Shown here: piece by piece, positions 7,111 to 30,422 of the stretch
Numbering within the stretch: position 1 is the first letter of the stretch
How the letters are laid out: every line of letters starts with the position of its first letter
Origin: Chloroflexota bacterium
GTDB lineage: Bacteria > Chloroflexota > Chloroflexia > Thermomicrobiales > UBA6265
Length of the DNA: 38,781 nt
Assembly: GCA_023424355.1 (NCBI GenBank)
Contig: JAFAEA010000236.1
Coordinates: 1-38,781 of the forward strand
Direction: 5' to 3'
The notes under the pieces: generated by a model
The model's database searches: none
Told to the model about the DNA's origin: nothing
Seen by the model: the letters and a program-made list of their open reading frames with translations, nothing else
Made by a program: the position numbers and the translations under genes

Positions 7111-7149
7111 TGACAAGGTTGAGACCGTTCGCGAGGATTTGATCCCCGG

Positions 7150-7222: not shown

Positions 7223-7277
7223 CAAGCTGCGTAGGTCAGACACCCTGCAGAGGCGGTGTACACGTCCTCCCTACGCA

Positions 7278-7351: not shown

Positions 7352-7363
7352 ATGAACGATCCG

Positions 7364-7802: not shown

Positions 7803-8932
7803 ATGAGGATCTCTTCCATCGCGTTTGCTGCAGGGCGCTGCATATCGACATCTACATGCGAGTACACATCGGCTGTGGTGGCCAGGCTGGTGTGTCCAAG
7901 GATGCTGGAGACGACTTTGATATTGATTCCTGATCGCAGCATGGCCGTGGCTGCCGTATGCCGGAGATCATGTAGTCGGCAATGTGGCACGTCAGCGAGA
8001 TCACACACGTTCTTATGCCATCGTGCGATGCTCGATTGTGGAAGCAGCAAACCGTTACCTCGATCGAACACAAGATCCGTTGAGACCCATTCTTCCGATC
8101 GCAGCCGGCGCTCATTCTGATCGACCTTCAGAAGCCGAAGTGCCTTGATCGCGATCTCGGGTATGGCGATAGTGCGAGTGCGACTGGTTTTGGTTGTGAC
8201 TCCAACGTGCTGACGAAAGTTCTCATCACGGGTGATGGTTCGTTGGCATGAGATTGTTCCCGCCGAGAGATCCACATCTGCCCACATGAGAGCGCGCATT
8301 TCGCCAGGTCTCAATCCCGTTGAGAGTGCCAGCGTATAGAAGGCGTTGAGCGTAGTATCACCTCGCACTACCTTCATCACGGCATTGATGTGTGATTCTG
8401 ACCACACCATACGCCCAGAACGTCGAAGAGTTGGCGTCATAGTACCTAGCACTGGATTCGAGTTGATCACGCCGAGTGCGATGATCTCCTTCATGGTTCC
8501 GTGCAGAATGATTCGCGAGTTGCGAACAGACGACGAACTGTATCGAGAGGCGAGATTGTCTATCCATCGCTGAACATCGTGCGGTGTGAGTTCCACGACT
8601 TTGCGTTTTCCGAGATGAGGGTAGAGGCGTGTCTCGGCAACCTGCTCATAGCTGGCGTAAGTATTGCTCGACCAGCGACGTTTCCCGCGCTCCAGATATT
8701 CGATCACTGCCTCTTTCACCGTCATCTGGGACGCTGGCGAATATCGTCCGGAACGCTTCAGGCGACCCACAGTGCGTAGATGGTCTTCCGCGTCCTCGAT
8801 GGTTCCGAAGGTCTTGGATCGCCATTTCGTGCCTTCCTGCCATCGCGCCTGATACCGAATCTCGCCCTCACTGGTTTGCCGCTCGGTGACAAAACCGTCG
8901 CCTCGCCTTACCTCGTGTTTTCGCCTTGCCAT
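7781..8932 (-). CDS. int: tyrosine recombinase / phage integrase
   Basis: 383 aa. Catalytic signature TGLRPGEMRAL ... CRLHDLRHTAATAML ... LGHTSLATTADVYSHV (R..HxxR..H..Y). Adjacent to the tRNA genes. Confidence 0.9.
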   Translation of the reverse strand: MARRKHEVRRGDGFVTERQTSEGEIRYQARWQEGTKWRSKTFGTIEDAEDHLRTVGRLKRSGRYSPASQMTVKEAVIEYLERGKRRWSSNTYASYEQVAETRLYPHLGKRKVVELTPHDVQRWIDNLASRYSSSSVRNSRIILHGTMKEIIALGVINSNPVLGTMTPTLRRSGRMVWSESHINAVMKVVRGDTTLNAFYTLALSTGLRPGEMRALMWADVDLSAGTISCQRTITRDENFRQHVGVTTKTSRTRTIAIPEIAIKALRLLKVDQNERRLRSEEWVSTDLVFDRGNGLLLPQSSIARWHKNVCDLADVPHCRLHDLRHTAATAMLRSGINIKVVSSILGHTSLATTADVYSHVDVDMQRPAANAMEEILMRESGGA

Positions 8933-9838: not shown

Positions 9839-10207
9839 TTAAATGTGTTTTTCCTTCTGCACTCTTCCGATAATCTTCAACGCAGAAGCTCTGTGGCTCT
9901 CATAGTCGCCCATCAGTGTATCTATCGTCATATAGAGATCGTAATCTGCGGAGTTGCGAGCTTCTCTGAGCTGATTCAAATCGTCGGCCAGGTTCTCGTC
10001 AATCGATTCGAGTGCAGTTATGACGTCTCCGTGGACCTTAGAGCCTTTTCCGAAGCTAACGGACCTATCTCTCGCGAAAAAATCCCGACAAACCAGAAAT
10101 GTCGCATAGTAGAGACGGCTCATTGCGGTGCGCTGTTCAGCCTCTGAGCACGTACCCCAGCAATTCTTGCTTGCAACATCCAAGAATCCCATGGGATCGA
10201 ACATCAC
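9839..10207 (-). CDS. HEPN-like (UPF0332-type) small protein, candidate toxin/effector
   Basis: 122 aa. The pattern SRLYYATFLVCRDFF ... KVHGDVITALES ... LNQLREARNSADYD matches my recollection of the helical HEPN/UPF0332 profile (YYA..., H-containing helix, R-x3-ADY). 4-nt overlap with the upstream gene. AT-richer than the phage backbone. Confidence 0.6.
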   Translation of the reverse strand: MMFDPMGFLDVASKNCWGTCSEAEQRTAMSRLYYATFLVCRDFFARDRSVSFGKGSKVHGDVITALESIDENLADDLNQLREARNSADYDLYMTIDTLMGDYESHRASALKIIGRVQKEKHI

Positions 10208-10662
10208 TCAATGACTCTCAAAATGATCGGTGTCACCAATTGGCAATCCCCCGGGTATTCTGATTTGTATTCGGCCCGAATATCGGATTTTGCAATCTCG
10301 AACTCTTGATCAGGCAGACGAATGCGAAGGTAAAGTGAAAGCTTTACTTCATCGTCGATGTTAGTCGAAAGACGAACCTCGCCAACGGAGAGATCATCAC
10401 GGCTGGCGAATTGTTCAGCGATCGTGATGAGAGAAATGATCTGCTCAAGTGCAAGGGGATTGTTGTCAATGAAGTCTCTTACCGCTGCTCGATGATGTAG
10501 GGGGGCCGAGTCGATTGAAGCTTGAGCTTCGGCAGGAACAAGAATCGATCTGCGAGCCGCAACCCTATCCATTCCAGTTGACGGCCATGCCCATACCTTA
10601 TCGCTCGCACCCAGGGCACTTGCGAGGGTTTCTATCACTTGGTATTGGGTCAGTCTATTCAT
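10204..10662 (-). CDS. hypothetical protein, partner of HEPN-like gene
   Basis: 152 aa. Overlaps the downstream HEPN-like gene by 4 nt (ATGA-type) and the upstream ORF by 8 nt. I could find no nucleotidyltransferase (GS...DxD) motif. Confidence 0.65.
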   Translation of the reverse strand: MNRLTQYQVIETLASALGASDKVWAWPSTGMDRVAARRSILVPAEAQASIDSAPLHHRAAVRDFIDNNPLALEQIISLITIAEQFASRDDLSVGEVRLSTNIDDEVKLSLYLRIRLPDQEFEIAKSDIRAEYKSEYPGDCQLVTPIILRVIE

Positions 10663-11131
10663 CTATGTCACCTTCATCCAACTTGCTCTTAGCAGATACC
10701 ATCTCAATGCCTTCATCGAACCCTTCTCGATCAAGGAATTTTTTGATGGCACTATTCAAGGCAGTGCGCGCTGACCTTCTGGACTTGCTTGTGGTGATCT
10801 TTTTCTCGTTGTGGCCGTCAATGAGACTGCAATACCACGCCTCATCGGTTTTTAGAATGACGAACCCCGCCATCGCGGATTCTCCATCCTTTCCAACTAC
10901 CCTCATTTGAAGTACATTGTTTGAAACAAGCATTTCCTCGAGCAGCTCGTCCCTTTTCTGGTCATATGAGAGCTCTTGCTTGTCACCCACTGCGAATACC
11001 TCTCTATAGTGCCGCAAGTCGCAATCTTCTAGGACGGTCCTTCTGGATCCGTCGCTTGGAACTAGCACCCGTTCGTTTCTGCATTGTGGTTTACAAACGG
11101 CACTGATGTCAATAATTATTGACGCCTCCAC
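10655..11131 (-). CDS. hypothetical acidic-tailed protein (start uncertain)
   Basis: The frame is open to a TTG at 11251 (198 aa), but codons upstream of about 11116 look like the out-of-frame shadow of a GC3-rich 59-aa ORF. Candidate starts are GTG 11131 (coupled to that ORF) or GTG 10990 (preceded by GAGAGG, 8-nt spacing). The C-terminus DEGIEMVSAKSKLDEGDIDE is acidic. Confidence 0.5.
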   Translation of the reverse strand: MEASIIIDISAVCKPQCRNERVLVPSDGSRRTVLEDCDLRHYREVFAVGDKQELSYDQKRDELLEEMLVSNNVLQMRVVGKDGESAMAGFVILKTDEAWYCSLIDGHNEKKITTSKSRRSARTALNSAIKKFLDREGFDEGIEMVSAKSKLDEGDIDE

Positions 11132-11295
11132 ACAATCACGCCGTTCCCCACATGCTTGAACGTCGCCGGCTTCGGTGAGCACGGCTCGAAGCGATGGTCG
11201 CCCTGGGCATATCGGTCGTGCACGTCTCGGCGATACCCGCAGTGGCGGCAATAGGCGCCGTTCATCGGGAGCGGGCGGCGGGGTGGGGTGGTCAT
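11116..11295 (-). CDS. 59-aa zinc-ribbon-like protein (MTTPPRRPLPMNGAYCRHCGYRRDVHDRYAQGDHRFEPCSPKPATFKHVGNGVIVWRRQ)
   Basis: Just below the ORF-track cutoff. The ATG lies 3 nt after the TAA of the 331-aa gene. Third codon positions are strongly G/C-rich, unlike its AT-richer neighbours. CxxC...H...C pattern. Confidence 0.5.
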   Translation of the reverse strand: MTTPPRRPLPMNGAYCRHCGYRRDVHDRYAQGDHRFEPCSPKPATFKHVGNGVIVWRRQ

Positions 11296-11298
11296 GGG

Positions 11299-12294
11299 TT
11301 AGGGGCGATCTTCATGCGGTATATGGGAATATTCAGTCACATCGCCCACTGACTTCTTTTGTGGATCCCAAGACCCTGGGATGTCGCTTGAAGATGGAAT
11401 CGCAACTGTTGGGTCGTAAGGATAGCCAGCTACAATCGTTTCAATAGCGGTAATTGCATCAATATCCAATCCCCCACTCATGAACGACAGCACATGCCAA
11501 TCATGACGAACAAACACAATTGCAGTTGCTCCGGTTCCATTTTGGACCGCGCAAGTTTGATCACCCTCTATTCCTGTGTCTGCCCAATGCGCAGTGTCTC
11601 CGGTGCTTATGAAGTAGGCGGCGGCTTCATCACACATGCCCTGAAACGCGTCCGAGGCACTGGTGGCATCGACAAATTCATAGGAGGTGATGACAAGGAG
11701 GAGAGGCGAACCAGCAGCGGGGGATTTTGCGACCAGGCCTATTTGGGTAACCCGATCGGCCTGGGGGACGTAAGCGATTGGTTCAAGTGGTTTTTCTGAT
11801 TGGGAAACTGGTGGTTCACTGTCATCGGAAGGCACTTCTCCTCTTTCATCGGACAGGAGATAGAGGTTTGCTCCGTTCTTCAGATTTTCGAGAATACGGA
11901 AGTTCACTCTTTCGAGCTGGATCCCAAGCAATGAGAATTCATATCCCGATGTTTGGGGAAGCTCAACGTCAAACTCGTAGTAGCAGCCTCTATGCTTGTT
12001 ACCATTGTCGAATGTAGCGGTTGCTTCCATGCCCGTGGGAATATCGAATTTGAACTGATGGTCACCATCCCAACTCATCACTTCGAGACGAGCGGGCTGT
12101 CCAAAGTCGTCAACCTGGCAAGTTGCTGTATCCAGAGAAGAGACTTCATCGCTGACGAACAGCTTGATCGTCAGGACCAGCGAAGTTGAAGTGGACTGGT
12201 TGCTGTCTCTTGTGCCACGCTGGCCAGCCGTCATATTGACCGGGATCACCAGGAGTACAGAGATCACGATTGGCACAAGATATCTAGCCACCAT
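11299..12294 (-). CDS. signal-anchored / secreted protein of unknown function
   Basis: 331 aa. AGGAGG lies about 5 nt upstream of the ATG, and the stop of the repressor gene is embedded in that SD (9-nt intergenic gap). N-terminal hydrophobic helix (YLVPIVISVLLVIPV), two beta-rich regions joined by an acidic/Pro linker (SDDSEPPVSQSEKPLEP). Confidence 0.75.
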   Translation of the reverse strand: MVARYLVPIVISVLLVIPVNMTAGQRGTRDSNQSTSTSLVLTIKLFVSDEVSSLDTATCQVDDFGQPARLEVMSWDGDHQFKFDIPTGMEATATFDNGNKHRGCYYEFDVELPQTSGYEFSLLGIQLERVNFRILENLKNGANLYLLSDERGEVPSDDSEPPVSQSEKPLEPIAYVPQADRVTQIGLVAKSPAAGSPLLLVITSYEFVDATSASDAFQGMCDEAAAYFISTGDTAHWADTGIEGDQTCAVQNGTGATAIVFVRHDWHVLSFMSGGLDIDAITAIETIVAGYPYDPTVAIPSSSDIPGSWDPQKKSVGDVTEYSHIPHEDRP

Positions 12295-12303
12295 ACATTC
12301 CTC

Positions 12304-12681
12304 CTAATTTCGCTTCTTCAACATCCGGCCATATCCCTCAACCACATATCGTATGTGATCGATATCTTCCTCATCGAAATCGTATCTATCGAGTACTGGT
12401 CGCAGAGCAGCGATGGCGGGCGAATCTCCTTCTTTCCCAGTCTCAATGTCATATCCAGCGGCGGCAAGAATATCGGCGGACGACACCCTCAGCGCTTTTG
12501 ACAAAGCAAGAACATCCTCGGGAGGGGGTAGCTCTTTTGCCGCCCCTCGTTCAATTCGAGATACCCAATTTTGGGACTTGCCAATTGCGTTGGCCAGCTC
12601 CATCTGACTTTGGAAACCTGCGGATATTCGACTGGTTGCTATGAAGTTGCCCAATTTGTCCATGCTCCTAGTTTTGCTCAT
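12304..12681 (-). CDS. XRE-family helix-turn-helix repressor (CI-like)
   Basis: 125 aa. HTH segment SQMELANAIGKSQNWVSRIERG. Divergent from the Cro/Xis-like genes across a 96-nt promoter region. No SD before the ATG at 12681, so it may be leaderless. No S24 peptidase domain. Confidence 0.85.
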   Translation of the reverse strand: MSKTRSMDKLGNFIATSRISAGFQSQMELANAIGKSQNWVSRIERGAAKELPPPEDVLALSKALRVSSADILAAAGYDIETGKEGDSPAIAALRPVLDRYDFDEEDIDHIRYVVEGYGRMLKKRN

Positions 12682-15083: not shown

Positions 15084-15096
15084 GGAGTAAATGATC

Positions 15097-16155
15097 ATGA
15101 CAGACACAAAACAGTCAACCAGCAGCGGTCTGGCAGTTCATCCGGGCCATTGGGTTCCAGCGGTGGACAACCGCCAGGACATTGACCTGATTCGCCAGAC
15201 CTATGCGAAGACACTCAACAACAACGAACTCGAACTCCTGGTGGCACACGGCAACCAAATGGGACTGAGTGTCATCAAGAAGCAGATCTACGGAATCAAG
15301 CGTGGTGACCAGATGAGCATTCAGGTCGGCATCGATGGATACCGCGCGATTACCGAATCCAACCCGGACTTCATGGGCTATGAGGGCCCGGAATGGTGCG
15401 GGCCAGATGGCCAGTGGGTGGATGTTTGGCTCAACCCAGAGCCGCCACGTGCCGCACGTATGGGTATATACCGCAAGGGATTCGCCAAGCCGATTTGGGG
15501 TGTCGCTGTCTACGATGAGTTCGTTCAGACCTTCTACGACAAATACACCAAGTCGCAGAAGCCGAACTCGATGTGGCAGAAGATGCCGGCCAACCAGCTC
15601 GCGAAGTGCGCAGAGGCCCAGGCGCACCGTAAGGCTACGCCTGGGGTGCTAGGTGGCACTGAAATGTACGACGAGGATTCACCTGAGGTTGAGCAGGTCC
15701 AGGCTATGGGTGTGGAGACAACAGTCACGGTGTCTGGTGGATCTGCCGCTGACGAATGGAACAAGGCCAACCGTCGCCTTCGAGCAATCGCTGCTCAATA
15801 CAAGGTTCCAGATGAGCATCTCGGCCTGTATCCGAAGGTCTACAAGAAGGATTCGTTGAAGGATCTCACGGCGCAGCAGCTCAACGCACTGGCGAACAGC
15901 ATGTCCACTGCTCCAGAGAAGATCGAGCCGTACTTTGCCGATCTCGTTGCGAAGTATGGCTCCGAGCCAGCGACCCACGACGAGGAAGTTGAGGCGGGTT
16001 CTGAACCATCCGACGACGTGGAGGATACGTACGAAGGAGAGTTCCAAGAGGTCACCGAAGACGGTGAAATCATCCCGGAAGGCGTCGGTCGAGGCAACTT
16101 CCAGAGCCCACTGATTGACGTTCCTTTGGAACATCCGAACCACGGCGATTCGTAG
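15097..16155 (+). CDS. recT: RecT-family single-strand annealing recombinase
   Basis: AAGGAG lies 9 nt upstream of ATG 15097 (ATG 15091 is too close to the SD). IQVGIDGYRAIT ... MWQKMPANQLAKCAEAQAHRKATP matches the RecT core. The C-terminus is an acidic tail. Confidence 0.85.
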   Translation: MTDTKQSTSSGLAVHPGHWVPAVDNRQDIDLIRQTYAKTLNNNELELLVAHGNQMGLSVIKKQIYGIKRGDQMSIQVGIDGYRAITESNPDFMGYEGPEWCGPDGQWVDVWLNPEPPRAARMGIYRKGFAKPIWGVAVYDEFVQTFYDKYTKSQKPNSMWQKMPANQLAKCAEAQAHRKATPGVLGGTEMYDEDSPEVEQVQAMGVETTVTVSGGSAADEWNKANRRLRAIAAQYKVPDEHLGLYPKVYKKDSLKDLTAQQLNALANSMSTAPEKIEPYFADLVAKYGSEPATHDEEVEAGSEPSDDVEDTYEGEFQEVTEDGEIIPEGVGRGNFQSPLIDVPLEHPNHGDS

Positions 16156-16213: not shown

Positions 16214-17023
16214 ATGAGTTGGGTAAAGCTGGATGATGGCTTCTTTAGAAACACAAAAGTTGTCGGAATTTCTGCGGAATCTCGACTGATTTATCTCGCC
16301 GGACTGTGCTACGCCAGCGCTTCGCTCTCTGACGGAACTGTGCCAAAAGGTGCCGTAAAAATACTCGCCGCAGAGGCAGGAGTTGCTTCAACCGCTAAGC
16401 GTATTCGCGAGCTGGTAGAAGCGGGGCTATGGGTCGAAAACCCTGATGGTTACGCCATTCATGACTACCTGGAGCATAACAGCAGTGCAGAAGATGTTCG
16501 CTCGAAAAAGGATGCTGCAAAGGAGCGGATGCAACGCAGGCGTTCGCAAAATGTTCGCGCGAACAAAGAACGAACTTCGCGCGAAGTTCGCGAGCCAGAT
16601 ACAGATACAGATACAGAGTTAACCACAACTAACGTTGTGGTTGGGCCGCAAGCGCCTGCCACCCAAGATCCTGAACCGGTTGAAGAAAAACCTAAACCGA
16701 AACGGGCAACGCAGATCTCTCCTGACTGGCAGGTGAGCGATCACTTGCGGGAGTGGGCTCATGGCGCCGGGTACACCGACGCCGATCTTGCCCAGGAAGC
16801 GCCGAAGTTTCGGGATCACTGGCTTTCCAAGGGCGAGCCCCGGAAAGACTGGGACGCGGGATTCCGGATGTGGATGGCAAACGCCAAGCAATACGGTCAC
16901 CTGTTTGCGAAACCGAAGCAGGCTGGACCGCCGCCCAATCTCCAAACCGACAGCTATCGGGGTGATGACGAGAGCCACTGGCTCGGTCAATACGCCCAAA
17001 CACACGGGAGAAAGACAGCATGA
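16214..17023 (+). CDS. replication initiator / replisome-organiser-like protein
   Basis: 269 aa. The N-terminal winged-helix-like segment (WVKLDDGFFRNTKV...RLIYLAGLCYA) is typical of phage replication organisers. It sits immediately upstream of the DnaC-like loader with an ATGA overlap. The central linker carries DNA repeats. Confidence 0.65.
   Translation: MSWVKLDDGFFRNTKVVGISAESRLIYLAGLCYASASLSDGTVPKGAVKILAAEAGVASTAKRIRELVEAGLWVENPDGYAIHDYLEHNSSAEDVRSKKDAAKERMQRRRSQNVRANKERTSREVREPDTDTDTELTTTNVVVGPQAPATQDPEPVEEKPKPKRATQISPDWQVSDHLREWAHGAGYTDADLAQEAPKFRDHWLSKGEPRKDWDAGFRMWMANAKQYGHLFAKPKQAGPPPNLQTDSYRGDDESHWLGQYAQTHGRKTA
16541..16642. repeat. candidate origin of replication inside the initiator gene
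   Basis: GTTCGC(A/G) at 16542, 16553 and 16586. 12-bp palindrome GTTCGCGCGAAC (16553-16564). 18-bp perfect palindrome GAACTTCGCGCGAAGTTC (16572-16589). (GATACA)x3 at 16598-16615. Hairpin AACCACAAC-taac-GTTGTGGTT (16621-16642). Confidence 0.4.
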
Positions 17024-17781
17024 AACACATTGGTGAGGTGATGCGGGATTCGAATATCGCCGACCTGGTGGCAAGTGTGACCGCCAAGCGTGAAGCGCGC
17101 AGGCAGGCCGGCATCGAGCAGTACGGTTGGGATGTTGATTGCGTCTGCGACTACTGCGGCGATACCGGAGTTGATCCGGAAACCGCAAGGGTATGCAACT
17201 GCGAAGTTGGCCGGAATCTCGAGACCGCGCGACGCCTCGAGCGCGATTGGCACACATTCGTGCCGTGGCGATTCAAAGACTTTCGCCTCGAGACACACCC
17301 AAACCGACGGGCCGCGAAGGAAGTGCAGGAGTGGGTCGCATCGGGATTCGACAATCGCGAAAACCTGATGCTCGTTGGCCCGGTTGGCAGCGGCAAGACA
17401 GGGTTGGCCATTGGTGCCATGCGTGAGATCTACATGACCGATGCGGTTTGCAGATTCGACACCTTCTCCGGTTACCTGGACCAGCTGCGGCCAAAGGATA
17501 CGCCTTCGCTCGATGCGCTCGAAATGGATCACCTCACCTCAGCTGGACTGCTGGTGATCGACGACCTGGGCACGCAAAAGATGACCGATTGGGTGGCAGA
17601 GCGATTGTACCTGATCGTGAACGATCGATACCAAAACGGTTTGCCGATGATCGTGACCACCAATCTGACCGGTGATGAACTCGATCGGATGCTGGGAGAG
17701 CGAATCATGAGCCGACTCTCGACATCTTCACGGATGGTGGCTGTTGGTGGATCCGATCTCCGAAAGCGGGGTGCAGCATGA
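17020..17781 (+). CDS. DnaC/IstB-like AAA+ helicase loader
   Basis: 253 aa. Walker A LVGPVGSGKT, Walker B LLVIDDLG, sensor region IVTTNL. N-terminal Cys cluster CVCDYCGDTG...CNC. Confidence 0.85.
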   Translation: MKHIGEVMRDSNIADLVASVTAKREARRQAGIEQYGWDVDCVCDYCGDTGVDPETARVCNCEVGRNLETARRLERDWHTFVPWRFKDFRLETHPNRRAAKEVQEWVASGFDNRENLMLVGPVGSGKTGLAIGAMREIYMTDAVCRFDTFSGYLDQLRPKDTPSLDALEMDHLTSAGLLVIDDLGTQKMTDWVAERLYLIVNDRYQNGLPMIVTTNLTGDELDRMLGERIMSRLSTSSRMVAVGGSDLRKRGAA

Positions 17782-18254
17782 TCGACGAAATGTCCATCGA
17801 GGAGTTCCACGAATACCAGGCAACAGGCAAAATGCCATTCCGATTTCTGGGCCAAAGTCGATCCAGAGTGCTGGATATGGTCGCCAAGAAGGCTCCAGAA
17901 CTGCTGGACCACGCGACAGAGGCGATGAGTTCACCGCCGGAGTATAGGCCCGGACCGGCACTCACGATTTCGGAGAAGGCGTTTCAGTCGCAGGTTGAGC
18001 AGGCCGCGCGTGCTTCCGGTTGGTATGCGTACCACACCTACAGCTCGCGTCGAAGCGAGCCGGGATTCCCGGACCTGGTGCTGGTGAATCCGACGCGAAA
18101 GCGCACGGTGTTCGCCGAACTCAAGACCGAGAAAGGTTCGGTATCGGATCACCAGAAGCGATGGCTTTGGGCGTTGAAGGAATCAGGTCAAGAAGCGTAT
18201 CTCTGGCGACCATCAATGTGGTCAGAAATCGAAGCAGTGCTCACGCGTAGATAA
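17778..18254 (+). CDS. VRR-NUC domain nuclease
   Basis: 158 aa. PD-(D/E)xK-type motif GFPDLVLV ... FAELKTEKG ... Q..W. ATGA overlap with the loader gene. Confidence 0.8.
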   Translation: MIDEMSIEEFHEYQATGKMPFRFLGQSRSRVLDMVAKKAPELLDHATEAMSSPPEYRPGPALTISEKAFQSQVEQAARASGWYAYHTYSSRRSEPGFPDLVLVNPTRKRTVFAELKTEKGSVSDHQKRWLWALKESGQEAYLWRPSMWSEIEAVLTRR

Positions 18255-21290: not shown

Positions 21291-21483
21291 TGATGTTGTA
21301 CTCGCAGTGCTTCTGGCAGTTACGAATATCTTCTGGCTCTGGTTCAACCTGGGCACCATTCAGCGGTGGGAAAGGTCATCCGATAAGTGGTCGGAACTCT
21401 GCCGAGAACAGAACAACACATGGTCCGAGTACGCCAGCGGCCTAGTGCGTCAGTTGCAAGACAAGGAGCACACCAATGGATAA
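21283..21483 (+). CDS. small membrane protein
   Basis: ATG 21283 follows AGGAGG. Length 66 aa. N-terminal hydrophobic helix VVLAVLLAVTNIFWLWFNL. Confidence 0.5.
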   Translation: MSSDVVLAVLLAVTNIFWLWFNLGTIQRWERSSDKWSELCREQNNTWSEYASGLVRQLQDKEHTNG

Positions 21484-21694
21484 CCGCGAATTCACCGACC
21501 CGCCTCATGACTACTACACGACCGGCAATGGATACCTGGCGCACAGTGCCTACCTCAACAACAGTCGATTGTGGAATACGAGAGAAGGCGCAGAGCGGTA
21601 TGCGAAGCGCGGAGAATTTGTCTACAAGGTGACCGTCGAGCTTGTTGGCAGGGCACCTCGTGACTTTGGACATGAGGAGTCCACCAATGGATAA
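21476..21694 (+). CDS. hypothetical protein (cassette flanked by 17-bp direct repeats)
   Basis: 72 aa. Both its start junction and its stop junction lie within identical CACCAATGGATAACCGC 17-mers. Confidence 0.5.
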   Translation: MDNREFTDPPHDYYTTGNGYLAHSAYLNNSRLWNTREGAERYAKRGEFVYKVTVELVGRAPRDFGHEESTNG

Positions 21695-22091
21695 CCGCTT
21701 CACCACCGTACCGAATGGCCACCCAGCGCCGCTGTGGTACCAGCCGACCGATGGCTCGCCACGCCTCTACTGGACCGACGAGGAATGGGACTACCAGCAA
21801 CGGATCTACCGCAAGGGCGACAACAGCGCCGACGCCATCCAGGAAGCAATCGACACCCGCAACCACCAGCCGGTGGGGATCCAGATCAGGCCGCAGATGA
21901 TCGATCGGCCACGAACCTGTGGTCATTGCAAGAACACGTTCTATTCATCGTGGCCGCAAGCCAAGACATGCGGGAATCCGGTGTGCGCTACCGAGTATCG
22001 AAAGGCAGCGGCGCGAGAAGCGTATCACCGGAGCCCAGAGAAGCATCGAGCGGCGAAGCGTGAGCGCGATCGAAAGGCGAAAGCGGTATAG
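21687..22091 (+). CDS. zinc-ribbon protein with basic tail (last early gene)
   Basis: ATG 21687. Length 134 aa. CGHCKNTF...CGNPVC followed by a Lys/Arg-rich C-terminus. It is the last + strand gene before the late region. Confidence 0.55.
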   Translation: MDNRFTTVPNGHPAPLWYQPTDGSPRLYWTDEEWDYQQRIYRKGDNSADAIQEAIDTRNHQPVGIQIRPQMIDRPRTCGHCKNTFYSSWPQAKTCGNPVCATEYRKAAAREAYHRSPEKHRAAKRERDRKAKAV

Positions 22092-22116
22092 CTAGCGAGG
22101 CCGCTTTCCTGCGGCA

Positions 22117-22800
22117 TCAGGACAAGTAACCCAGTGCCATTGCGAAAGCAGCTGGCGCCTGGCTGACAATCGCCCCAGAGATCGTGCCAGCGAGAACCTC
22201 GTTCGTGAGCGTTCGTACCCACTTTCTCACCACAGACCTCTTTCCGTCAGGATCCGTTTCCTGTTCGAGCAAAGTCTTTAGCTCCTCAATTCGCTCTGAA
22301 TCCAGGCCGATGGATTTCAGCCCCTCTAGCAGCGCATCGTCTTGTCCTGATGTCACCTCGTAGGATGGGGATTGTGACAGATCCCCTCCTGCGACTCCCA
22401 CGGTAGTTTGATTTGCGTCTCCAGTAATCGTAATGTGCTGGACGATCGTGCCCGAAGGTAATGAGGCTTCGGCGAAGTGCGATAACAGACGGCTACCAAG
22501 GGAGCGAATTCTCTCAGGGTCAACTTTCTTCATATGAAACTCAGGAGGCAACCCCGAGAACCCGGATCTAGGTGCCATCTGGCTAAATTCATCCACGGCA
22601 GACTTGAGTTCGATATCCGAAATGTGATACTGCGAGAAGTCGCGATCAGTCAGTGCTTCCAGCGAACGAACCAGCCACATGTAGTCAGCTAGGTACCTTT
22701 CCGGCACTCGTTGATTGGATGAAGGAAGTGAGCCAATAAATGCCGTGAGTTCATTTACGACCTGGTTGATTTTGCCGTCGTTTGAAATCGCCATGATCAA
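22117..22800 (-). CDS. hypothetical protein with C-terminal hydrophobic helix (moron-like accessory gene)
   Basis: 227-aa ORF on the opposite strand to all its neighbours. A sampled line is about 48% GC, against about 58% in structural genes. The C-terminus LAGTISGAIVSQAPAAFAMALGYLS is hydrophobic. No motif recognised. Confidence 0.7.
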   Translation of the reverse strand: MIMAISNDGKINQVVNELTAFIGSLPSSNQRVPERYLADYMWLVRSLEALTDRDFSQYHISDIELKSAVDEFSQMAPRSGFSGLPPEFHMKKVDPERIRSLGSRLLSHFAEASLPSGTIVQHITITGDANQTTVGVAGGDLSQSPSYEVTSGQDDALLEGLKSIGLDSERIEELKTLLEQETDPDGKRSVVRKWVRTLTNEVLAGTISGAIVSQAPAAFAMALGYLS

Positions 22801-22892
22801 TCCTTTCCTGTAGACATGAGGGCGCAGGGTTTACATCCAAGTTTAGGTGAATATCCCGTACCAAACTTGAAATCTGCTATTCTATGACCATC

Positions 22893-22923
22893 CACCGCTA
22901 CGGATTATCGTGGCGGTGTTTTT
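22893..22923 (+). terminator. intrinsic terminator-like hairpin upstream of the late operon
   Basis: CACCGCTACG (22893-22902) pairs with CGTGGCGGTG (22909-22918), 10 bp including one G:U. 6-nt loop, then TTTTT (22919-22923). It lies 46 nt upstream of the terS start. Confidence 0.5.
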
Positions 22924-22968
22924 CATGCCTGACGTTAATGGCGTCAATTTGTATCAGGGGCTTGTATA

Positions 22969-23388
22969 GTGGCCCGTCGGGGCGCTACGCAAACTGAACA
23001 AGCTGCTCGTGAAGAGCGGTTGCGCAGTGTTGCCCGTGAACTCTTGGCAGAACCTCATCTTAAGCAGGTTGACCTTGCAGAGCGCCACGGTGTCACGCAG
23101 CAGCAAATCAGCCTCGATATCAAACTCATCAACAAGAGATACCAGGACGCAGCGCGCAAAGATACGACCGAGCGCATCGGCAAGCAGCTGCAGATGTACG
23201 ATGCCATTCGCGAGGCGCACATGCCGTTTGCGCTCCAGGGCAAGACGCGTAATGCCGAGATTGTGATGCAAGCGAACGCTGGTGAAGCAAAGCTGCTTGG
23301 CATGGATCGGCCTGTGAAGCAAGAAATCGCACTGGATGGCGGTGTGCGTGTGGAAATCATCGGCATGGCCGAAGAGGATCTGCCGTAG
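22969..23388 (+). CDS. terS: terminase small subunit (HTH-containing)
   Basis: 139 aa with a GTG start. HTH-like LKQVDLAERHGVTQQQISLDI. It lies immediately upstream of the large terminase gene. Confidence 0.7.
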   Translation: MARRGATQTEQAAREERLRSVARELLAEPHLKQVDLAERHGVTQQQISLDIKLINKRYQDAARKDTTERIGKQLQMYDAIREAHMPFALQGKTRNAEIVMQANAGEAKLLGMDRPVKQEIALDGGVRVEIIGMAEEDLP

Positions 23389-25629
23389 ATGCTTGCAACC
23401 GCTTCGCCACATCCACGAGCCACGATCCGCTATCAGCCGGTGGGATCTGCAAAGGATCTCATTGCTGCTCGCGATCTCGAGGTGCTGGCGGTCGGCCCGG
23501 CCGGCACAGGCAAGACGCTCGCTGCCTGCTGGAAGATTCACCTGGCGTGCCTGCGATATCCCGGCATTCGCGTGCTGATGGTGCGTAAGACGCTGGAATC
23601 GCTCAAGAGCGGTGCGCTCAACACGTTCATCAACGGTGTGCAACCGATCCGGTTCGGCGTCGAGACGTTTGGCGGCAACAAGTTCTTTCCCGCGGAGTTC
23701 CGATATCCCAACGGCAGCGTGATTCTCGTATCCGGCATGGATAAGGCGGAGAAGATCTTGTCCGCCGAGTTCGACATCATCTACGTCAACGAGATCACCG
23801 AGCCAGGCTTCATGGAATCTGATCTTGAGGTACTGCTCACCCGATTGCGCAACGGCAAGATGCCATATCAGCAGATCATCGCAGACGGCAACCCGAGTGG
23901 ACCGCGCCATTGGATGAACCGACGCTGCAACGAAGGTAAGACCCGGCGCATCACATCGACCCATAAAGACAATCCTGTGTACTGGGATGCCAAGAAGAAT
24001 GATTGGACCGACGTTGGCAGGCAGTACGTGCAAACGGTGCTTGCTGGCCTGACCGGTGTGCAGCGCAAACGCTTGTTCGAGGGCGTGTGGGCAGCCTCCG
24101 AAGGTCTGGTGTACTCCGAGTTCAATCCCGATGTGCACATCAAGTCGATACCACCCGAAGAGCTTGCCACCTGGAAGCGCGTCGTGCTCGGTGAAGACGT
24201 GGGTAGCACGAACCCGACCGTGATTCTGGTTGGGCACCAGCGCGGCGATGGCTACCTGCACATCAGTCACGAGATGTATCGCCGCGGCATGAGCAGCTCG
24301 GATATCACCGACGCCACCGTAGAGTTCTGGAAGCAGCACAAGCCTGACAAGCTCGTCATTGACCCGAGCGCCAAGGGGTACATCACCGATCTTCGACGCC
24401 AGGGCATTTACGTGGAAGCGGCACAGAATGACATTCTCGTTGGTGTCCAACGTGTGCATGGTCAGTTACAGGCTGGCTTCAGTATCGACCCGGCGTGCAC
24501 GAACACGATCGATGAGTTTGGCATGTATGCGTACCCCGACAACCCCAAGGTAGATACCGACAAGCCGATCAAGGAGAACGATCACTGCCTGATTGCCGGG
24601 ACTATGGTGACCACCATCAGCGGGGACAAGGCTATTGAGGCAGTTCAGAATGGCGAACTTGTGCTGACACGTGACGGATATCGGGAGGTTGTGTCCGCTG
24701 GTATGACGAATCCATCCGCCGAAGTGATGACCGTGCACTTGTCAAACGGGAAGTCGATAACTGGTACTGCGGGGCACCCTGTGTTTGCCAATGGGCAATG
24801 GGTCCTAATGGATGAACTGCGATACGGTGATATACTTATGGAGACAAGAGAGGTGTCTTCATGCGAGTTGAAATCATCGTCTATCGCGGTATCAAGTTCC
24901 GACGGTATCCAGATTCAGATCGGCTGTCAGACCAGCGATACTACCGGCCGCATGCCGGGCTCATTCGTAACGGCGTTCAAGCATTGCATCGAGAAATTTG
25001 GAAAGACCACAACGGACCAATCCCGGAAGGGCATCATATCCACCACATTGACGGGAACCCCGACAACAATGCTGTTGAGAATCTTGCATGCGTTCCGGCA
25101 GGTGACCATCTCAGCCATCACGGCAGCCAGCCATCGTCTGAACGAAAGCTGGCGCACTTGGAATCCATCCGCGACGCTGCTGCTGAATGGCATGGATCTG
25201 AGGCCGGTATTGAGTGGCACCGTGAACACGGTAGGCGTTCATGGGCAAAACGGCAGCCAGAGACAAGAACGTGCGAACAGTGCGGATGCGAGTTCGACGA
25301 TATTGCGCGGCGCTCTCGGTTCTGTTCAAACAAATGCAAGTCGGCATGGCGTAGAGCCAGCGGTGTCGATGATGAAGACCGAACCTGTGAGAACTGTGGG
25401 GCATCTTTCCGAACCGACAAATACAGCAAGACACGCACATGCACTCGTGCATGTGCTGGGCGTCTCCAAAGTCGCACAAAGGCAAGCAGTCTATAACCTG
25501 ACAGTAGCCGGTACGCCTGAATTTTTTGCGAACGGGGTGCTCGTCCACAACTGTATGGACGCGCTCCGGTACCTGGTGATGGGCATTACGGAACCGACGA
25601 TCGATCTCAAGAACTTCTTTGGCGTTTAG
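23389..25629 (+). CDS. terL: terminase large subunit, interrupted by an intein
   Basis: Walker A VGPAGTGKT, Walker B FDIIYVNEI. The nuclease-domain motif KENDH / CMDALRYL is split by a 322-aa Hint element. The exteins are 23389-24585 and 25552-25629. Confidence 0.9.
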   Translation: MLATASPHPRATIRYQPVGSAKDLIAARDLEVLAVGPAGTGKTLAACWKIHLACLRYPGIRVLMVRKTLESLKSGALNTFINGVQPIRFGVETFGGNKFFPAEFRYPNGSVILVSGMDKAEKILSAEFDIIYVNEITEPGFMESDLEVLLTRLRNGKMPYQQIIADGNPSGPRHWMNRRCNEGKTRRITSTHKDNPVYWDAKKNDWTDVGRQYVQTVLAGLTGVQRKRLFEGVWAASEGLVYSEFNPDVHIKSIPPEELATWKRVVLGEDVGSTNPTVILVGHQRGDGYLHISHEMYRRGMSSSDITDATVEFWKQHKPDKLVIDPSAKGYITDLRRQGIYVEAAQNDILVGVQRVHGQLQAGFSIDPACTNTIDEFGMYAYPDNPKVDTDKPIKENDHCLIAGTMVTTISGDKAIEAVQNGELVLTRDGYREVVSAGMTNPSAEVMTVHLSNGKSITGTAGHPVFANGQWVLMDELRYGDILMETREVSSCELKSSSIAVSSSDGIQIQIGCQTSDTTGRMPGSFVTAFKHCIEKFGKTTTDQSRKGIISTTLTGTPTTMLLRILHAFRQVTISAITAASHRLNESWRTWNPSATLLLNGMDLRPVLSGTVNTVGVHGQNGSQRQERANSADASSTILRGALGSVQTNASRHGVEPAVSMMKTEPVRTVGHLSEPTNTARHAHALVHVLGVSKVAQRQAVYNLTVAGTPEFFANGVLVHNCMDALRYLVMGITEPTIDLKNFFGV
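24586..25551 (+). mobile_element. intein within TerL (Hint domain split by about 213 aa)
   Basis: Block A CLIAGTMV directly after ENDH. Block B ITGTAGHPVF. Blocks F/G VYNLTVAGTPEFFANGVLVHN followed by +1 Cys (CMDALRY). Confidence 0.8.
24861..25496 (+). CDS. HNH homing endonuclease encoded out of frame inside the intein
   Basis: 211 aa in a different + strand frame from terL. GAGAGG lies 8 nt upstream of the ATG, and an in-frame TGA at 24828-24830 blocks any upstream extension. HNH motif HREIW...GHHIHHIDGNPDNNAVENL. Two C-terminal CxxC...CxxxC zinc modules. The TAA lies inside the Y-N codons of intein block F. Confidence 0.8.
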   Translation: MRVEIIVYRGIKFRRYPDSDRLSDQRYYRPHAGLIRNGVQALHREIWKDHNGPIPEGHHIHHIDGNPDNNAVENLACVPAGDHLSHHGSQPSSERKLAHLESIRDAAAEWHGSEAGIEWHREHGRRSWAKRQPETRTCEQCGCEFDDIARRSRFCSNKCKSAWRRASGVDDEDRTCENCGASFRTDKYSKTRTCTRACAGRLQSRTKASSL

Positions 25630-25644
25630 GCGGGAGCGGGACAC

Positions 25645-27798
25645 ATGAGCAACTGGCTACAGGATATTGGCAGGTTTATTCGCGGTGAAACAGGCTACGA
25701 CGATCGCGCGATGCCGCACCAGCTCGACATTCGAGAGGCGGCTGGCGATCAGATCATCAAGTGGAACACAGGCCGGCCGCAATGGCTGGAAAAGAACGTC
25801 CACCATCTCGACAAGCATGCCTATCGACGTGTGAGCCTCATCTTTGCGTGCATCCAGTACCTGTCGAACTCATCGGCTGTTGCGCCATTGAAGCTCATGC
25901 GCACGCTCAGCAACGATCAGGAAGAAGAAGCGCCAGACCACGACCTTACGCGATTGCTCCAGCGACCGAATGAAGGCCAGGGAGGTGGACGCTTCATTTC
26001 GTTCTGGACGCTCATGGCCGTGCTGACTGGCTTTGGCATTGTCGAGAAAGAGCGCGATCAGTATGGCCGTGTGATCGGCCTGTGGGTACTGCGCTCTGAC
26101 TGGCTGCGGCCGATCCCGCGATCTGCTGGCATCACCGATTGGGAGTACGCCGTGCCAGGGCATGATCGCCCGTTCATCATCGAGGCCGAAGACACCATCC
26201 CGCTTTCGTATGCCGACGTGATGACCGGCGACCCGACCGGTATTGGTCCAGTGGAGGTGATCTTCCAGGAAGCGCAGATCCTCAACGAGCTTGACGATTA
26301 CATCAAGGAGTTCCTCGACAACAAGGCGATGCCGCAGTACTTCGCTATTCCGGATACCGATGGCCCGTTGGCAGCGCAGTGGGGCGATCCTGATACCGTT
26401 GACGCGTTCCGAGAGAAGTTCAACCAAACCTATGGCGGCCTGCGACGCACGAGCAGCGTCATGGTCTCGCCAGCGATCAAAGATCTGAAGCAAATGGGCT
26501 TCAACATGAACGAGCTGGCGTATCGCGACCTGCGCGCCGTGAACGAGGCCAGCATCACCACCGCCTTCGGTATTCCGCCGATCCTGCTGAACACGCTATC
26601 GGGCCTCGAGCACGCCACGTACTCGAACTACGGGCAGGCGCGGCGAGCGTTCTACGAAGACAAGATGGTGCCGTGGTGGAGCAGGATCGATGATGCGCTC
26701 ACACGCCACTTGCTGCCAGAGTTCGAAACCGACAGTGCATACAATCTCGTATTCGATCTCTCCGAGGTGCCGGCGCTTCGAGACGATGAGAGCGCGACAC
26801 ACGATCGAGCAGTAAGCGCCTTCACATCGGCGCTGGTGAGCCGCCACGCCGCCCAGCGCATGGCAGGCATCAAGCCACACGGGCCCGATGTGTTCATGGT
26901 GCCGTTTAGCTCGATACAACAGCCAGTGAACTCACTGCCAAAGGCAAGCGCCACGATCTCCCAGCTCGATGACGACGCTCGAGCACTTCCGGCGCCGAGA
27001 TTCATTCGCCGCGATGGCCGCCTTTACATCAACGAGGCCACAGAAACGCCGCAGGAGCGTGCATCGGCACAACAGTTCATCCAGCATCAACGAGAGCTTA
27101 TGGGACGCCTGGGCGGCTTGCTCGAGCCACGCGCTGAAGCGTTCCTGCGTGCCCAGGGTGCGCGAATGATCGAAGAAGCGACGAACGAGCGCTCGGCAGA
27201 GACGTTCGAGGTTAGAGCGATCGATCAATACGACTGGTTCGCCGATGACGATGAGTTGATGAGCATCATGCGGCAATGGTGGGCACAGGTTACCGAATCG
27301 GCGTTCGGATCGGTATCGCAATCCCTTGGCGTTGATTTCGCGTTTGGCGGCAGTAATCCGTTCCTTGGCGAGATCGAAGGGATGCTTGGACACCGTATCC
27401 GCGGCATCAACGAAACCACCCGCGACATGGTGGAGACAATCGTACGCGAGCAGCTGCAGCAAGGCACCAGCATTCCGGACCTGAAGGAAGCGCTCGAGGA
27501 GTGGATCGAGCCGACCTACAAGAACCGCGCTCAGGCGATAGCACGCACCGAGAGCCAAGTCGCGTTGAACACCGCCACCGAGAAGGCGTACGCAGCCACA
27601 GGGCAGGTGAGCCATGTGCGCATGTTCGATAACCCGCTGTGTGACGGTAAGGCCGGAAGCGATGGCCTCACGTGCCCGCAACGCAACGGATTGGTGGTGC
27701 CCCTGGCTCAAATCCAGGAACACATCAATGGTGAGCATCCTAATGGGACTCTCGCATATGCCGCTGTGCTCGATCCGATCGAGGGGGTGGACTGGTGA
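25645..27798 (+). CDS. portal protein fused to a MuF/SPP1-gp7-like head-morphogenesis domain
   Basis: 717 aa immediately after terL. The C-terminal roughly 250 aa contain NRAQAIARTESQVALNTATEKAY, the ARTE-type motif of Mu F-like proteins. The N-terminal roughly 430 aa have portal size and position. Confidence 0.75.
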   Translation: MSNWLQDIGRFIRGETGYDDRAMPHQLDIREAAGDQIIKWNTGRPQWLEKNVHHLDKHAYRRVSLIFACIQYLSNSSAVAPLKLMRTLSNDQEEEAPDHDLTRLLQRPNEGQGGGRFISFWTLMAVLTGFGIVEKERDQYGRVIGLWVLRSDWLRPIPRSAGITDWEYAVPGHDRPFIIEAEDTIPLSYADVMTGDPTGIGPVEVIFQEAQILNELDDYIKEFLDNKAMPQYFAIPDTDGPLAAQWGDPDTVDAFREKFNQTYGGLRRTSSVMVSPAIKDLKQMGFNMNELAYRDLRAVNEASITTAFGIPPILLNTLSGLEHATYSNYGQARRAFYEDKMVPWWSRIDDALTRHLLPEFETDSAYNLVFDLSEVPALRDDESATHDRAVSAFTSALVSRHAAQRMAGIKPHGPDVFMVPFSSIQQPVNSLPKASATISQLDDDARALPAPRFIRRDGRLYINEATETPQERASAQQFIQHQRELMGRLGGLLEPRAEAFLRAQGARMIEEATNERSAETFEVRAIDQYDWFADDDELMSIMRQWWAQVTESAFGSVSQSLGVDFAFGGSNPFLGEIEGMLGHRIRGINETTRDMVETIVREQLQQGTSIPDLKEALEEWIEPTYKNRAQAIARTESQVALNTATEKAYAATGQVSHVRMFDNPLCDGKAGSDGLTCPQRNGLVVPLAQIQEHINGEHPNGTLAYAAVLDPIEGVDW

Positions 27799-28380: not shown

Positions 28381-29166
28381 ATGCAGTCCGTACCGACGAT
28401 TCGAAGAGGCAATCGAGAGATAGAGAAGCGATCGACACTCGACGTTCGCCTGAACGGGCATGTCGATGGATTCTCAGGCTACGCGTCAACTTTCTGGGTT
28501 GCCGATTCCTACGGTACCGCCATGGCTCCCGGCAGCTTCAAGAAGAGTATCCGCGAGCGTGGCGAGAAGATCCCCGTTCTGTGGAACCACAACTCCGACC
28601 ATGCCGTTGGCAAGCATCTCAGCATCAAAGAAGACAAGAAGGGGCTCAGCGTCGATATCGGCATTGCCGATGACGGCGATGCCGGTAGCGTTCTGCTGAA
28701 GCGTTTGCGCTTTGGTGTGCCGCTGGGCATGAGCTTCGGCTTCCAGCGCATCAAGAGCCGATCCGGCACAGACGATGATCCCATCGACCTCAGCCAGCTC
28801 CCTGCTGGCGTGAAGAAGAGCGAGATCGAGGTGTATCTGGAGAACGCGTACTGGGAATCCAGCGCGGTAACGTTCGCCGCAAACCAATCCGCAACCATCG
28901 ACACAATCCGCAGCGATCAGGATATCGAAAGCCTGGCTGCACTTTCCCAAACATTGGAAGACCTGCGTTCTGGCGACCTCGATCTCGAGGATGGCCGCTG
29001 GGCGCTGCTTCAAGAGATGGTCGCCGCATTCCAGGAGCGAAGCGAGCCGGAGCCGGATCCCGACGAGGATTCCACTCCACTCATTGCCGTGAATGCACGA
29101 CGCAGAACGATTGACATTGAACTTGCGCTGGCGAACGCCAGGGCCATTACAGGAGCCTACAAATGA
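28381..29166 (+). CDS. HK97-family prohead protease
   Basis: ATG 28381 follows GAGGTGG (the ORF-track GTG 28318 lies inside the hairpin). GYASTFWVADSYGTAMAPGSFKKSI...IPVLWNHN...VG resembles the prohead protease family core. It lies directly upstream of the capsid gene. Confidence 0.85.
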   Translation: MQSVPTIRRGNREIEKRSTLDVRLNGHVDGFSGYASTFWVADSYGTAMAPGSFKKSIRERGEKIPVLWNHNSDHAVGKHLSIKEDKKGLSVDIGIADDGDAGSVLLKRLRFGVPLGMSFGFQRIKSRSGTDDDPIDLSQLPAGVKKSEIEVYLENAYWESSAVTFAANQSATIDTIRSDQDIESLAALSQTLEDLRSGDLDLEDGRWALLQEMVAAFQERSEPEPDPDEDSTPLIAVNARRRTIDIELALANARAITGAYK

Positions 29167-30422
29167 ACACCAAGGATCTGATGGGCCGCATGGATGCGGT
29201 GATTACCGAACTGGAAGACCTTCGAGCCAAGGATTCACTCAACGACGATCAGGAAGCGCGCGTTGATGCGCTCATGGTCGAGCTCAACGATCTCGGTCCG
29301 AAGATTCAGCGCAGCCAGGCGGCCGACGCTGCTATCGAGGCCCACAAGGCACAGAGCCAGAGCCGTGGCGCAGCTGCCAACGTGCAGCCGAAGGGCGAGG
29401 CTGGCAAGGTCTCTCCTGCCGAAGCTCGCAAGAGCATCGGCGATCAGGTTGTCGAATCTGCCGAGTACAAGCAGTTCATCGCGAGCGGTGGCGCTCGTGG
29501 CCAGTTCTCGGTGGACGTTGAGTCTCGAGCGCTGGTTCACACCGGTCTGCTTCCGGCTGACTACGTTGAGCCGATGCGCATCCCAGGCATCATGCGGCCA
29601 GCCGATCCGTTCGGCAGCCTTCGTGATGTGATCACCGTTGGCCAGACCGACAGTGACGCGCTCATCTACTTCCGCGAAACCGCGTTCACCAACAATGCTG
29701 CGGCAGTTGGTGAATCCACCGCCATGGATGAGACCAGCGGCCTCAAGCCAGAATCTGGCCTGACGTTCGCCCAGGTGGTTGACGGTGTTGCGACGATCGC
29801 TCACTGGATCCCGATCACCAAGCAGACGCTGTGGAACGCTCCAGAGCTTCGCAGCTACATCGAAGGTCGCCTGATTGATGGCCTCAACATGGAAGAGAAC
29901 GATCAGCTGCTGAACGGCAATGGCACTGGTGACAACCTCACCGGCCTGCTGAACGTCTCTGGCGTGCAGGCGCTGGACGCTGCGTACTTCACCGCCAACG
30001 CTGTGAACGATACCGGCACCGATAACGAGAATTTCAACCGCGTGCTTCGCGGTCGAACCCTGGTGAGCACCATCGGTCGCGCTCAGGCGAACTTCGTGGT
30101 GCTGAACCCGGTTGACCATGAAACCTTCATGGCGAGCACCGATGCCCAGCAGCAGTACTTCGGCGCTGGCCCGTTTGCGGCTGGCAACGTGCCGACGCTC
30201 TGGGGCATGCGCGCTGTGGTGAACGAGAACATCACCGCTGGCAGTGTGCTGGTGGGAGATGGCCGCCAGGCAATGATTCTCGACCGCATGCAGGCCACCA
30301 TCACCGCTGGCTGGGCCGATAAGGACTTCATCCAGAACCGACTTCGCTTGCTCGCTGAGAAGCGCGTGGGCCTCGCAGTCTTCCGACCGCAGGCATTCGC
30401 AGTTGTTGAGCTGGCTGCCTAG
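29163..30422 (+). CDS. major capsid protein (HK97-like)
   Basis: 419 aa with an ATGA overlap with the protease gene. N-terminal coiled-coil delta-like region then a roughly 300-aa core. Size and position match HK97-type capsid genes. Confidence 0.85.
   Translation: MNTKDLMGRMDAVITELEDLRAKDSLNDDQEARVDALMVELNDLGPKIQRSQAADAAIEAHKAQSQSRGAAANVQPKGEAGKVSPAEARKSIGDQVVESAEYKQFIASGGARGQFSVDVESRALVHTGLLPADYVEPMRIPGIMRPADPFGSLRDVITVGQTDSDALIYFRETAFTNNAAAVGESTAMDETSGLKPESGLTFAQVVDGVATIAHWIPITKQTLWNAPELRSYIEGRLIDGLNMEENDQLLNGNGTGDNLTGLLNVSGVQALDAAYFTANAVNDTGTDNENFNRVLRGRTLVSTIGRAQANFVVLNPVDHETFMASTDAQQQYFGAGPFAAGNVPTLWGMRAVVNENITAGSVLVGDGRQAMILDRMQATITAGWADKDFIQNRLRLLAEKRVGLAVFRPQAFAVVELAA

Follow-up and report, generated by a model that had tools for sequence, protein, structure and literature searches.

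A minus-strand gene between the early and late operons of a Thermomicrobiales phage shares a homologous C-terminal module with AbiTii-domain proteins and is a candidate single-gene anti-phage protein

What is the role of a single gene that runs against both operons of a temperate phage? We addressed this question for a gene on the minus strand (here termed the target; 22117..22794, 225 codons plus stop, ATG at 22794) of contig JAFAEA010000236.1. The 38,781-base window analysed is the entire contig, and belongs to a 2.7-Mb, 84%-complete metagenome-assembled genome (MAG) of a Chloroflexota bacterium of the order Thermomicrobiales. An initial annotation, made from the letters alone, had described the locus as an AT-richer insertion encoding a possible abortive-infection or membrane-disrupting effector. 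Our profile comparisons indicate that the C-terminal ~130 residues of the target protein are homologous to the C-terminal module of ~305-residue proteins that carry an AbiTii N-domain.

The longest open reading frame (ORF) in the target's frame covers 22117..22800 (minus strand), and would yield the 227 residues given in the initial annotation if the TTG at 22800 were taken as the start. The ORF was upheld but its start was not: translation almost certainly begins at the ATG at 22794, giving 225 residues, because a Shine-Dalgarno-like AGGAAAGGA (22801..22809, minus strand) lies 6 nt upstream of this ATG, and all three full-length homologues begin MAI(S/T)NDGK. On sequence grounds, we take the ORF to be a real gene. 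Homologues of its whole length, with 45-53% identity, were found in unrelated contexts, and no competing plus-strand ORF of at least 60 residues is present within 22092-22968. The gene occurs as a single copy in its MAG. Within the gene, a 7-bp hairpin followed by UUUCAUAUG (22540-22558, minus strand) is located just upstream of the internal Met89, which has no Shine-Dalgarno sequence ahead of it; the hairpin is probably a chance occurrence (four terminator-like sites were found, with 1.4 expected).

In agreement with the initial annotation, which had recognised no family, the target protein had no match in Pfam (E up to 1), PHROGs, PADLOC (E up to 10) or NCBIfam; the PADLOC check, which that annotation had suggested, thus recognised no defence family. 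A word-indexed search of 5.8 billion proteins returned three relatives only, all full-length and with 45-53% identity. One of these comes from Thermomicrobiales MAGs that share the genus of the host MAG, where its gene is part of an island that also holds a DUF3800 gene and a capsid remnant. The gene for the second immediately follows one for an MmeI-type restriction-modification protein and is itself followed by a transposase gene, and that for the third is on a short contig without usable context. A profile of the target and these three relatives was then compared with 1.8 billion representatives, yielding ~20 further proteins that matched residues ~108-225 only and differed in their N-termini. 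This profile reached AbiTii-type proteins at E 1e-4 to 1e-5, with intermediates at E 1e-6 to 1e-12. Five of the ~20 proteins carry an N-terminal AbiTii domain (E 1e-37 to 1e-43), which in these ~305-residue proteins is confined by both Pfam and PADLOC to the first ~185 residues.

The relationship was seen in both directions. A hidden Markov model (HMM) built from 12 non-AbiTii members only matched the last ~115 residues of >100 AbiTii-headed proteins, with scores of 30-71 bits. The reciprocal HMM, built from the C-termini of 98 AbiTii proteins, found the target as its sole match among the 38,757 six-frame ORFs of the genome (E 2.1e-8). When the module was aligned with the AbiTii C-termini using hhalign, the probability was 99.1% (E 7.5e-19 over 128 columns). 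A Pfam scan of all 44 module sequences revealed no recurrent family, and none of the module-family proteins found bears a functional name. Long repetitive hits of the profile (P0009, P0011, P0012, P0014 and P0025) were set aside as summed-repeat artefacts.

The structure of the target protein was predicted with AlphaFold2 from a 44-sequence alignment (mean predicted local distance difference test score, pLDDT, 84.4; a second model gave 74.5). The N-terminal head, here termed N1 (residues 1-92; 22519..22794, minus strand), is lineage-specific, with predicted helices at 5-22, 32-49 and 66-73. Its alignable counterparts are confined to the N-termini of P0006-8, P0010, P0013, P0018, P0019 and P0029 and to an ORF in locus L040, and a database search with N1 alone found nothing but the query itself. 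The idea that N1 might be a divergent AbiTii domain was rejected, since its alignment against 60 AbiTii heads gave an hhalign probability of 3.9%. The conserved C-terminal module, as delimited by the profile, HMM and hhalign comparisons, comprises residues 93-225 (22120..22518, minus strand) and begins with a predicted helix at 93-108. This is followed by a stretch rich in Asn, Gln and Gly (residues 117-148, IVQHITITGDANQTTVGVAGGDLSQSPSYEVT; 22351..22446, minus strand), for which strands are predicted at 119-126, 129-136 and 144-148 with lower pLDDT (58-79). The last part (residues 150-225; 22120..22347, minus strand) contains four helices, 152-161, 166-178, 182-202 and 208-224, with pLDDT >=90. 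These are arranged as a helix, a turn at G163, a helix, a DPDGK loop, a cationic amphipathic helix (containing W192), a G203-G207 turn, and an Ala-rich hydrophobic helix ending Y-L-S.

Across the family, the consensus of the beta stretch is QVFNTyI.GNVqNVATGS....Q, with Q141 present in 87% of members, and the conserved positions are Q141, G150/D151, L155, L159, G163, L172, W192 and G203. The target carries Q141, G150, L155, L159, G163, L172, W192, G203 and Y223; the GD of the family is replaced by GQ, and its terminal Y-x-G by Y-L-S. There is no catalytic-type residue among the conserved module positions, and no Arg or His is conserved. A match of the helix-turn-helix pair 152-178 to the SAP domain (E 0.78) was treated as noise.

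The initial annotation had also pointed to a terminal hydrophobic helix. Hydrophobicity does peak at the C-terminus of the protein, but the stretch concerned is marginal as a membrane segment and is split in the AlphaFold2 model. Its Kyte-Doolittle maximum over 19 residues is 1.40, under the usual threshold of 1.6, its Wimley-White octanol sum is ~0, and the holin-like and signal-anchor proteins that this phage encodes are more hydrophobic. In the model, a break at G203-G207 separates the end of helix 182-202 from a helix of 17 residues (208-224) that contains Pro214. Residues 186-203 have a hydrophobic moment of 0.51 (among the highest 0.6% of the protein's windows), and residues 208-224 have a mean hydrophobicity of 0.59. 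In AbiTii-type members, the last 45 residues carry a net charge of +2.7 and are amphipathic, not hydrophobic.

The module was found in several arrangements: N1+module, N1+N2+module (N2 being a further domain, marked by an HPGLPRGF motif), N2+module, AbiTii+module, module alone, and N1 and module as a split pair. Genes of the AbiTii+module type occur at the end of a P2-like prophage (also represented by an IMG/VR contig), in a HicAB/transposase island, and on 132 plasmid records, for example from Burkholderia glumae, Ralstonia, Synechococcus elongatus (pANL), Klebsiella, Enterobacter and Escherichia coli (IncFII); on pANL, the gene adjoins a replication gene. At three non-AbiTii loci (L017, L018 and L040), a homologous XRE helix-turn-helix (HTH) gene of 75-77 codons lies upstream, but there is no such gene beside the target or elsewhere in the window. 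No relative was found in 50,697 deposited phage genomes, and a pattern search showed the target subfamily to be absent from INPHARED and IMG/VR. The target is the only member that we found inside a phage between early and late operons.

Individual loci provided further observations. On the IncFII plasmid of E. coli NZ_CP019904.1 (L035, 574-5921), the AbiTii+module gene lies beside genes for an AAA-family ATPase (712 residues) and an ATP-dependent helicase (594 residues); this pair, near repA, looks like a Gabija-type system. An integrative element (L040, 590-4081) encodes the N1 head (1829-2128) and the module (2236-2586, P0015) as separate ORFs in different frames, with the XRE HTH gene ~1 kb upstream of them and an integrase gene a short distance downstream. 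Such an arrangement reflects either a split of natural origin or a pseudogene with a frameshift. In G087, a complete genome from the same order (L030, 7998-8820), an AbiTii head fragment (115 residues) and a module (129 residues) are separate ORFs beside transposase remnants, and this locus is a disrupted AbiTii+module gene. The relative P0016 is encoded upstream of a contractile injection system cluster (L016, 2886-8447) with AAA ATPase, Pvc16_N, sheath and tube genes.

By its gene content, the contig is a temperate siphophage-like genome. A tail protein gene (805-2886) is followed by the lysis genes at 5.1-7.1 kb, among them an endolysin gene (5128-6429). Between these and the integrase gene (7781-8932, minus strand) are three tRNA-like genes (7148-7433, minus strand; Thr-UGU, Gly-UCC, and a third without an ARAGORN assignment). 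The assembled molecule is not a prophage integrated beside int, because the contig is unbroken from the lysis genes across the tRNA genes to the integrase gene. When the contig ends were joined, no clearly continuous tail gene resulted, and circularity is unproven. A lysogeny block (9839-12681, minus strand), in which only the repressor (12304-12681) was recognised by PHROGs, precedes the early genes, i.e., those for RecT (15091-16155), a replication initiator (16214-17023), a DnaC-like loader (17020-17781) and a resolvase-like protein (17778-18254), all on the plus strand. The last early gene, convergent with the target, encodes a NinG-like zinc-ribbon protein (21687..22091, plus strand; weak NinG and phrog_171 matches). 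Its start is likely to be the ATG at 21687 and not the TTG at 21642, because the Shine-Dalgarno sequence and the MDNR start are shared with the preceding gene in a 39-nt direct repeat, D2 (21464-21502 and 21675-21713; 77% identical; AGGAG..CCAATGGATAACCGC, MDNR...). The two adjacent small early genes that share D2 appear to be tandem paralogues.

On the other side, divergent from the target, is a gene for a 139-residue HTH protein (22969..23388, plus strand) that abuts the TerL gene and was assigned as terS-like by this position. The TerL gene (23389-25629, plus strand) contains an intein at ~24586-25551 (Intein_splicing, E 2.6e-11; C...HNC boundaries), within which a 211-residue ORF (24861-25496, plus strand) is nested in another frame. 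Genes for the portal (25645-27798), major capsid protein (29163-30422) and tape measure (34302-37655) follow. Plus-strand ORFs tile 13-22.1 kb and 22.97-38.8 kb, and other minus-strand ORFs in these regions (e.g., a 501-residue ORF at 22954-24459) are shadows of plus-strand genes. This leaves the target as the only convincing minus-strand gene from 13 kb to the end of the window, and it does lie between the last early gene and terS, both as the initial annotation had it. We looked for related phages with an empty junction between the NinG-like and terS-like genes (megablast against phages, and portal and terS searches of genome contigs, viral contigs and 400 genomes of the class) and found none; these searches returned distant or truncated relatives only.

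The AT-richness noted in the initial annotation was real but modest. The G+C content of the target is 52.2%, versus 56.9% for the window, placing it at the 8th percentile of 678-nt windows (1.6 sd), and its G+C at third codon positions (GC3) is 55%, compared with 62-73% in the replication and structural genes. In composition it is close to the lysogeny block, where G+C is at its lowest within the contig (48.5-51%; GC3 47-56%). The intergenic region between the target and the divergent terS-like gene (22795..22968; 174 nt, 44.8% G+C) presumably contains the target promoter. In a consensus scan, a terminator-like hairpin of 11 bp (7 of them G-C) followed by TTTTT was found upstream of the terS-like gene (22893..22918, plus strand), and it would be expected to halt read-through of the early operon antisense across the target. 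The stop codons of the target and the NinG-like gene face each other across 25 nt, within which there is a short hairpin (GCCGC-TTTCCT-GCGGC, 22100..22115); lacking a T-run, this hairpin is weak. The target's orientation against its neighbours, its separate upstream region, its reduced GC3 and the hairpins on either side fit an accessory gene that is transcribed independently.

Taken together, these results led us to a reading to which we give roughly an even chance: the target would be a single-gene, prophage-borne abortive-infection or exclusion protein, with an anti-phage phenotype that we infer. As part of the same explanation, which we consider the best available, it would be an accessory gene ("moron") that moves horizontally and is carried here by a temperate siphophage of Thermomicrobiales. 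The defence-type reading rests on homology, and not on layout alone, because the C-terminal module is shared with AbiTii-N-domain proteins. What survives of the effector proposed in the initial annotation is its defence-type character, through the homology of the module and the mobile or defence contexts in which it is found; its terminal hydrophobic helix is marginal. Because the module takes the position of a HEPN domain behind AbiTii, and is constant behind variable heads, it can be viewed as the output and the heads as sensors. The most economical assignment would be a portable, non-enzymatic output unit with interchangeable sensors.

Under the mechanism that we propose, the target would be transcribed from its own promoter, opposed during lytic growth by convergent early transcription. 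The N1 head would act as a lineage-specific sensor, triggered by the infecting phage, and the triggered module would act without catalysis, most plausibly by self-assembling and by attacking or binding the membrane through its terminal helical hairpin. Assembly and membrane action are suggested by the amphipathic-plus-hydrophobic terminal hairpin and by the beta stretch. A more specific version is that the module is a non-enzymatic killing switch, in which the head triggers self-assembly of the beta stretch (possibly amyloid-like) and this drives the helical hairpin into the membrane, i.e., an all-in-one mirror image of HET-S or Bab; this version we regard as improbable.

Several points weigh against the reading of the target as an abortive-infection or exclusion protein. 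We know of no member of the module family, AbiTii-fused or not, that has been assayed. The papers mentioning AbiTii that we consulted do not describe the module. The target has no AbiTii domain, and its genome has no AbiTi partner by the PADLOC model. Comparison of the two AlphaFold2 models with PDB and BFVD gave no fold match better than E 0.03 (TM-scores <=0.3), and the profile found nothing significant among PDB sequences. Membrane action is weakly based, with the tail below transmembrane thresholds. The lysogen state is assumed, as the contig shows no prophage integrated next to int, and a consensus scan upstream of the target detected no sigma-70 consensus promoter. Finally, the contractile-injection-system context of one relative is not obviously defensive.

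We also weighed four other explanations. The module might be an adaptor or assembly domain that docks the head onto a conserved host component or a separately encoded effector, leaving toxicity to another protein, although the target would then remain defensive. This would fit the need of lactococcal AbiT for two proteins, the lack of an effector domain in AbiTii itself, the lack of catalytic residues in the module, and perhaps the faint, non-significant SAP-like match of helices 152-178 (E 0.78). However, no partner gene is conserved across contexts, the PADLOC AbiTi model was silent in the genome of the window, in two related genomes and in three module-bearing plasmids, and the target stands alone between convergent and divergent neighbours; we consider an adaptor role unlikely. 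The target might instead be a constitutive tail-anchored protein of the inner membrane, blocking DNA entry by superinfecting phages (classical superinfection exclusion), as the terminal hydrophobic helix of the initial annotation would suggest. The last 26 residues are the most hydrophobic of the protein, the relatives P0010, P0013 and P0016 reach Kyte-Doolittle values of 1.6-1.9, and the target is an accessory gene that stands alone and has an upstream region to itself. Its own values (1.40, with an octanol sum of ~0) nevertheless fall below those of the holin-like and signal-anchor controls, the conserved Gly turn and Pro214 leave a helix of only 17 residues, and the homologous helices in >100 AbiTii-type members are charged and amphipathic, making a simple anchor quite improbable.

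The target might also serve the element or the phage itself rather than defence. If it were the toxin of a toxin-antitoxin-like addiction pair, with its XRE partner lost or never present, its function would be maintenance of the element. The XRE HTH genes (75-77 codons; products 43-57% identical to one another) that precede the module-family genes of L017, L018 and L040 in the same orientation are what brings this to mind, but no such gene is present beside the target, in the window, in L001-L005 or beside AbiTii-fused members, and mobile elements also use small XRE proteins as ordinary repressors. We think that this explanation has little chance of being correct. A function in the lytic cycle (in lysis timing, associated with packaging, or regulatory) or in anti-defence has similarly poor prospects. 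The target does adjoin the packaging genes, and no defence library recognises it; yet it is on the strand opposite to both operons, the lysis genes are elsewhere (5.1-7.1 kb), relatives are found on plasmids and chromosomal islands without phage genes, and neither the 50,697 deposited phage genomes (for any relative) nor IMG/VR (for the target subfamily) contained one.

Few candidate defence genes have been seen in Chloroflexota phages, and the target is one of them. The profile link ties this near-orphan protein to a large, unnamed module of AbiT-type proteins, frequent on plasmids from Klebsiella, Enterobacter, E. coli, Ralstonia, Burkholderia and cyanobacteria and covered by no family library. 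As the module is joined to three or more unrelated heads, and is present in a phage from an uncultured Thermomicrobiales lineage, it is arguably a portable functional unit. The E. coli and S. elongatus homologues provide tractable cases for establishing what nuclease-less AbiTii-type systems do. Were the killing-switch version true, the AbiTii-headed proteins of enterobacterial plasmids and the target would share one undescribed, assembly-gated membrane effector.

How does the target compare with systems already described? Like the Bab/Agp proteins (E. coli Abi) and the Bell/BASS proteins (bioRxiv 10.1101/2024.11.07.622273 and 10.1101/2020.01.06.895854), it combines a beta stretch rich in Gly, Asn and Gln with a small helical domain and a terminal hydrophobic helix, and these proteins and the target family have a prophage or defence-island setting in common. 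The order in the target is mirrored, however, with the motif before the helical domain and the hydrophobic helix at the C-terminus. The G-phi-Q-phi-G core is absent, the target having TGDANQTTVGVAGG and the family GNVQNVATG, and there was no Pfam match to RHIM, HeLo or Bell. Amyloid signalling between two proteins was rejected, as an HMM of the motif found only the target among the 38,757 six-frame ORFs of the 84%-complete MAG (next E 0.05).

To AbiT of Lactococcus lactis (AbiTi + AbiTii), the target is linked only via its AbiTii-headed relatives and through its accessory, mobile-element setting. It is one gene and not two, and lacks both the AbiTii domain (~180 residues, alpha+beta) and AbiTi; the AbiTi model (PDLC02333) had no match at E up to 10 in the MAG, in the genomes G012 (of the same genus) and G087 or in three module-bearing plasmids. 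Lactococcal AbiTii has no effector domain and works with AbiTi. AbiTii heads are otherwise fused to C-terminal HEPN nuclease domains of the c2405 and Ymh families, with the head proposed to interact with the phage and the tail to be the effector (Anantharaman et al., 2013; PMC3710099). The target follows the same logic of a head with a C-terminal output. Its module is not itself a HEPN domain, an identity excluded by the strands at 119-148, which an all-alpha HEPN bundle would not contain, by the lack of an Rx4-6H motif and of any conserved Arg or His, and by the lack of a Pfam HEPN match.

The closest comparison is with the ~305-residue proteins that join an AbiTii N-domain (PF18864/PDLC02334) to the unnamed module, such as WP_045341327.1 (E. 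coli IncFII), WP_011055120.1 (S. elongatus pANL) and WP_252836563.1 (B. glumae plasmid). Their C-terminal ~130 residues correspond to those of the target and, like it, they are encoded by stand-alone genes on mobile elements. The target differs in having a helical head of ~90 residues that is unrelated to AbiTii by hhalign, and a tail that is more hydrophobic and less cationic. We regard the target as a head-variant of an uncharacterised but widespread module family attached to AbiT-type systems, and as a good candidate for a defence gene.

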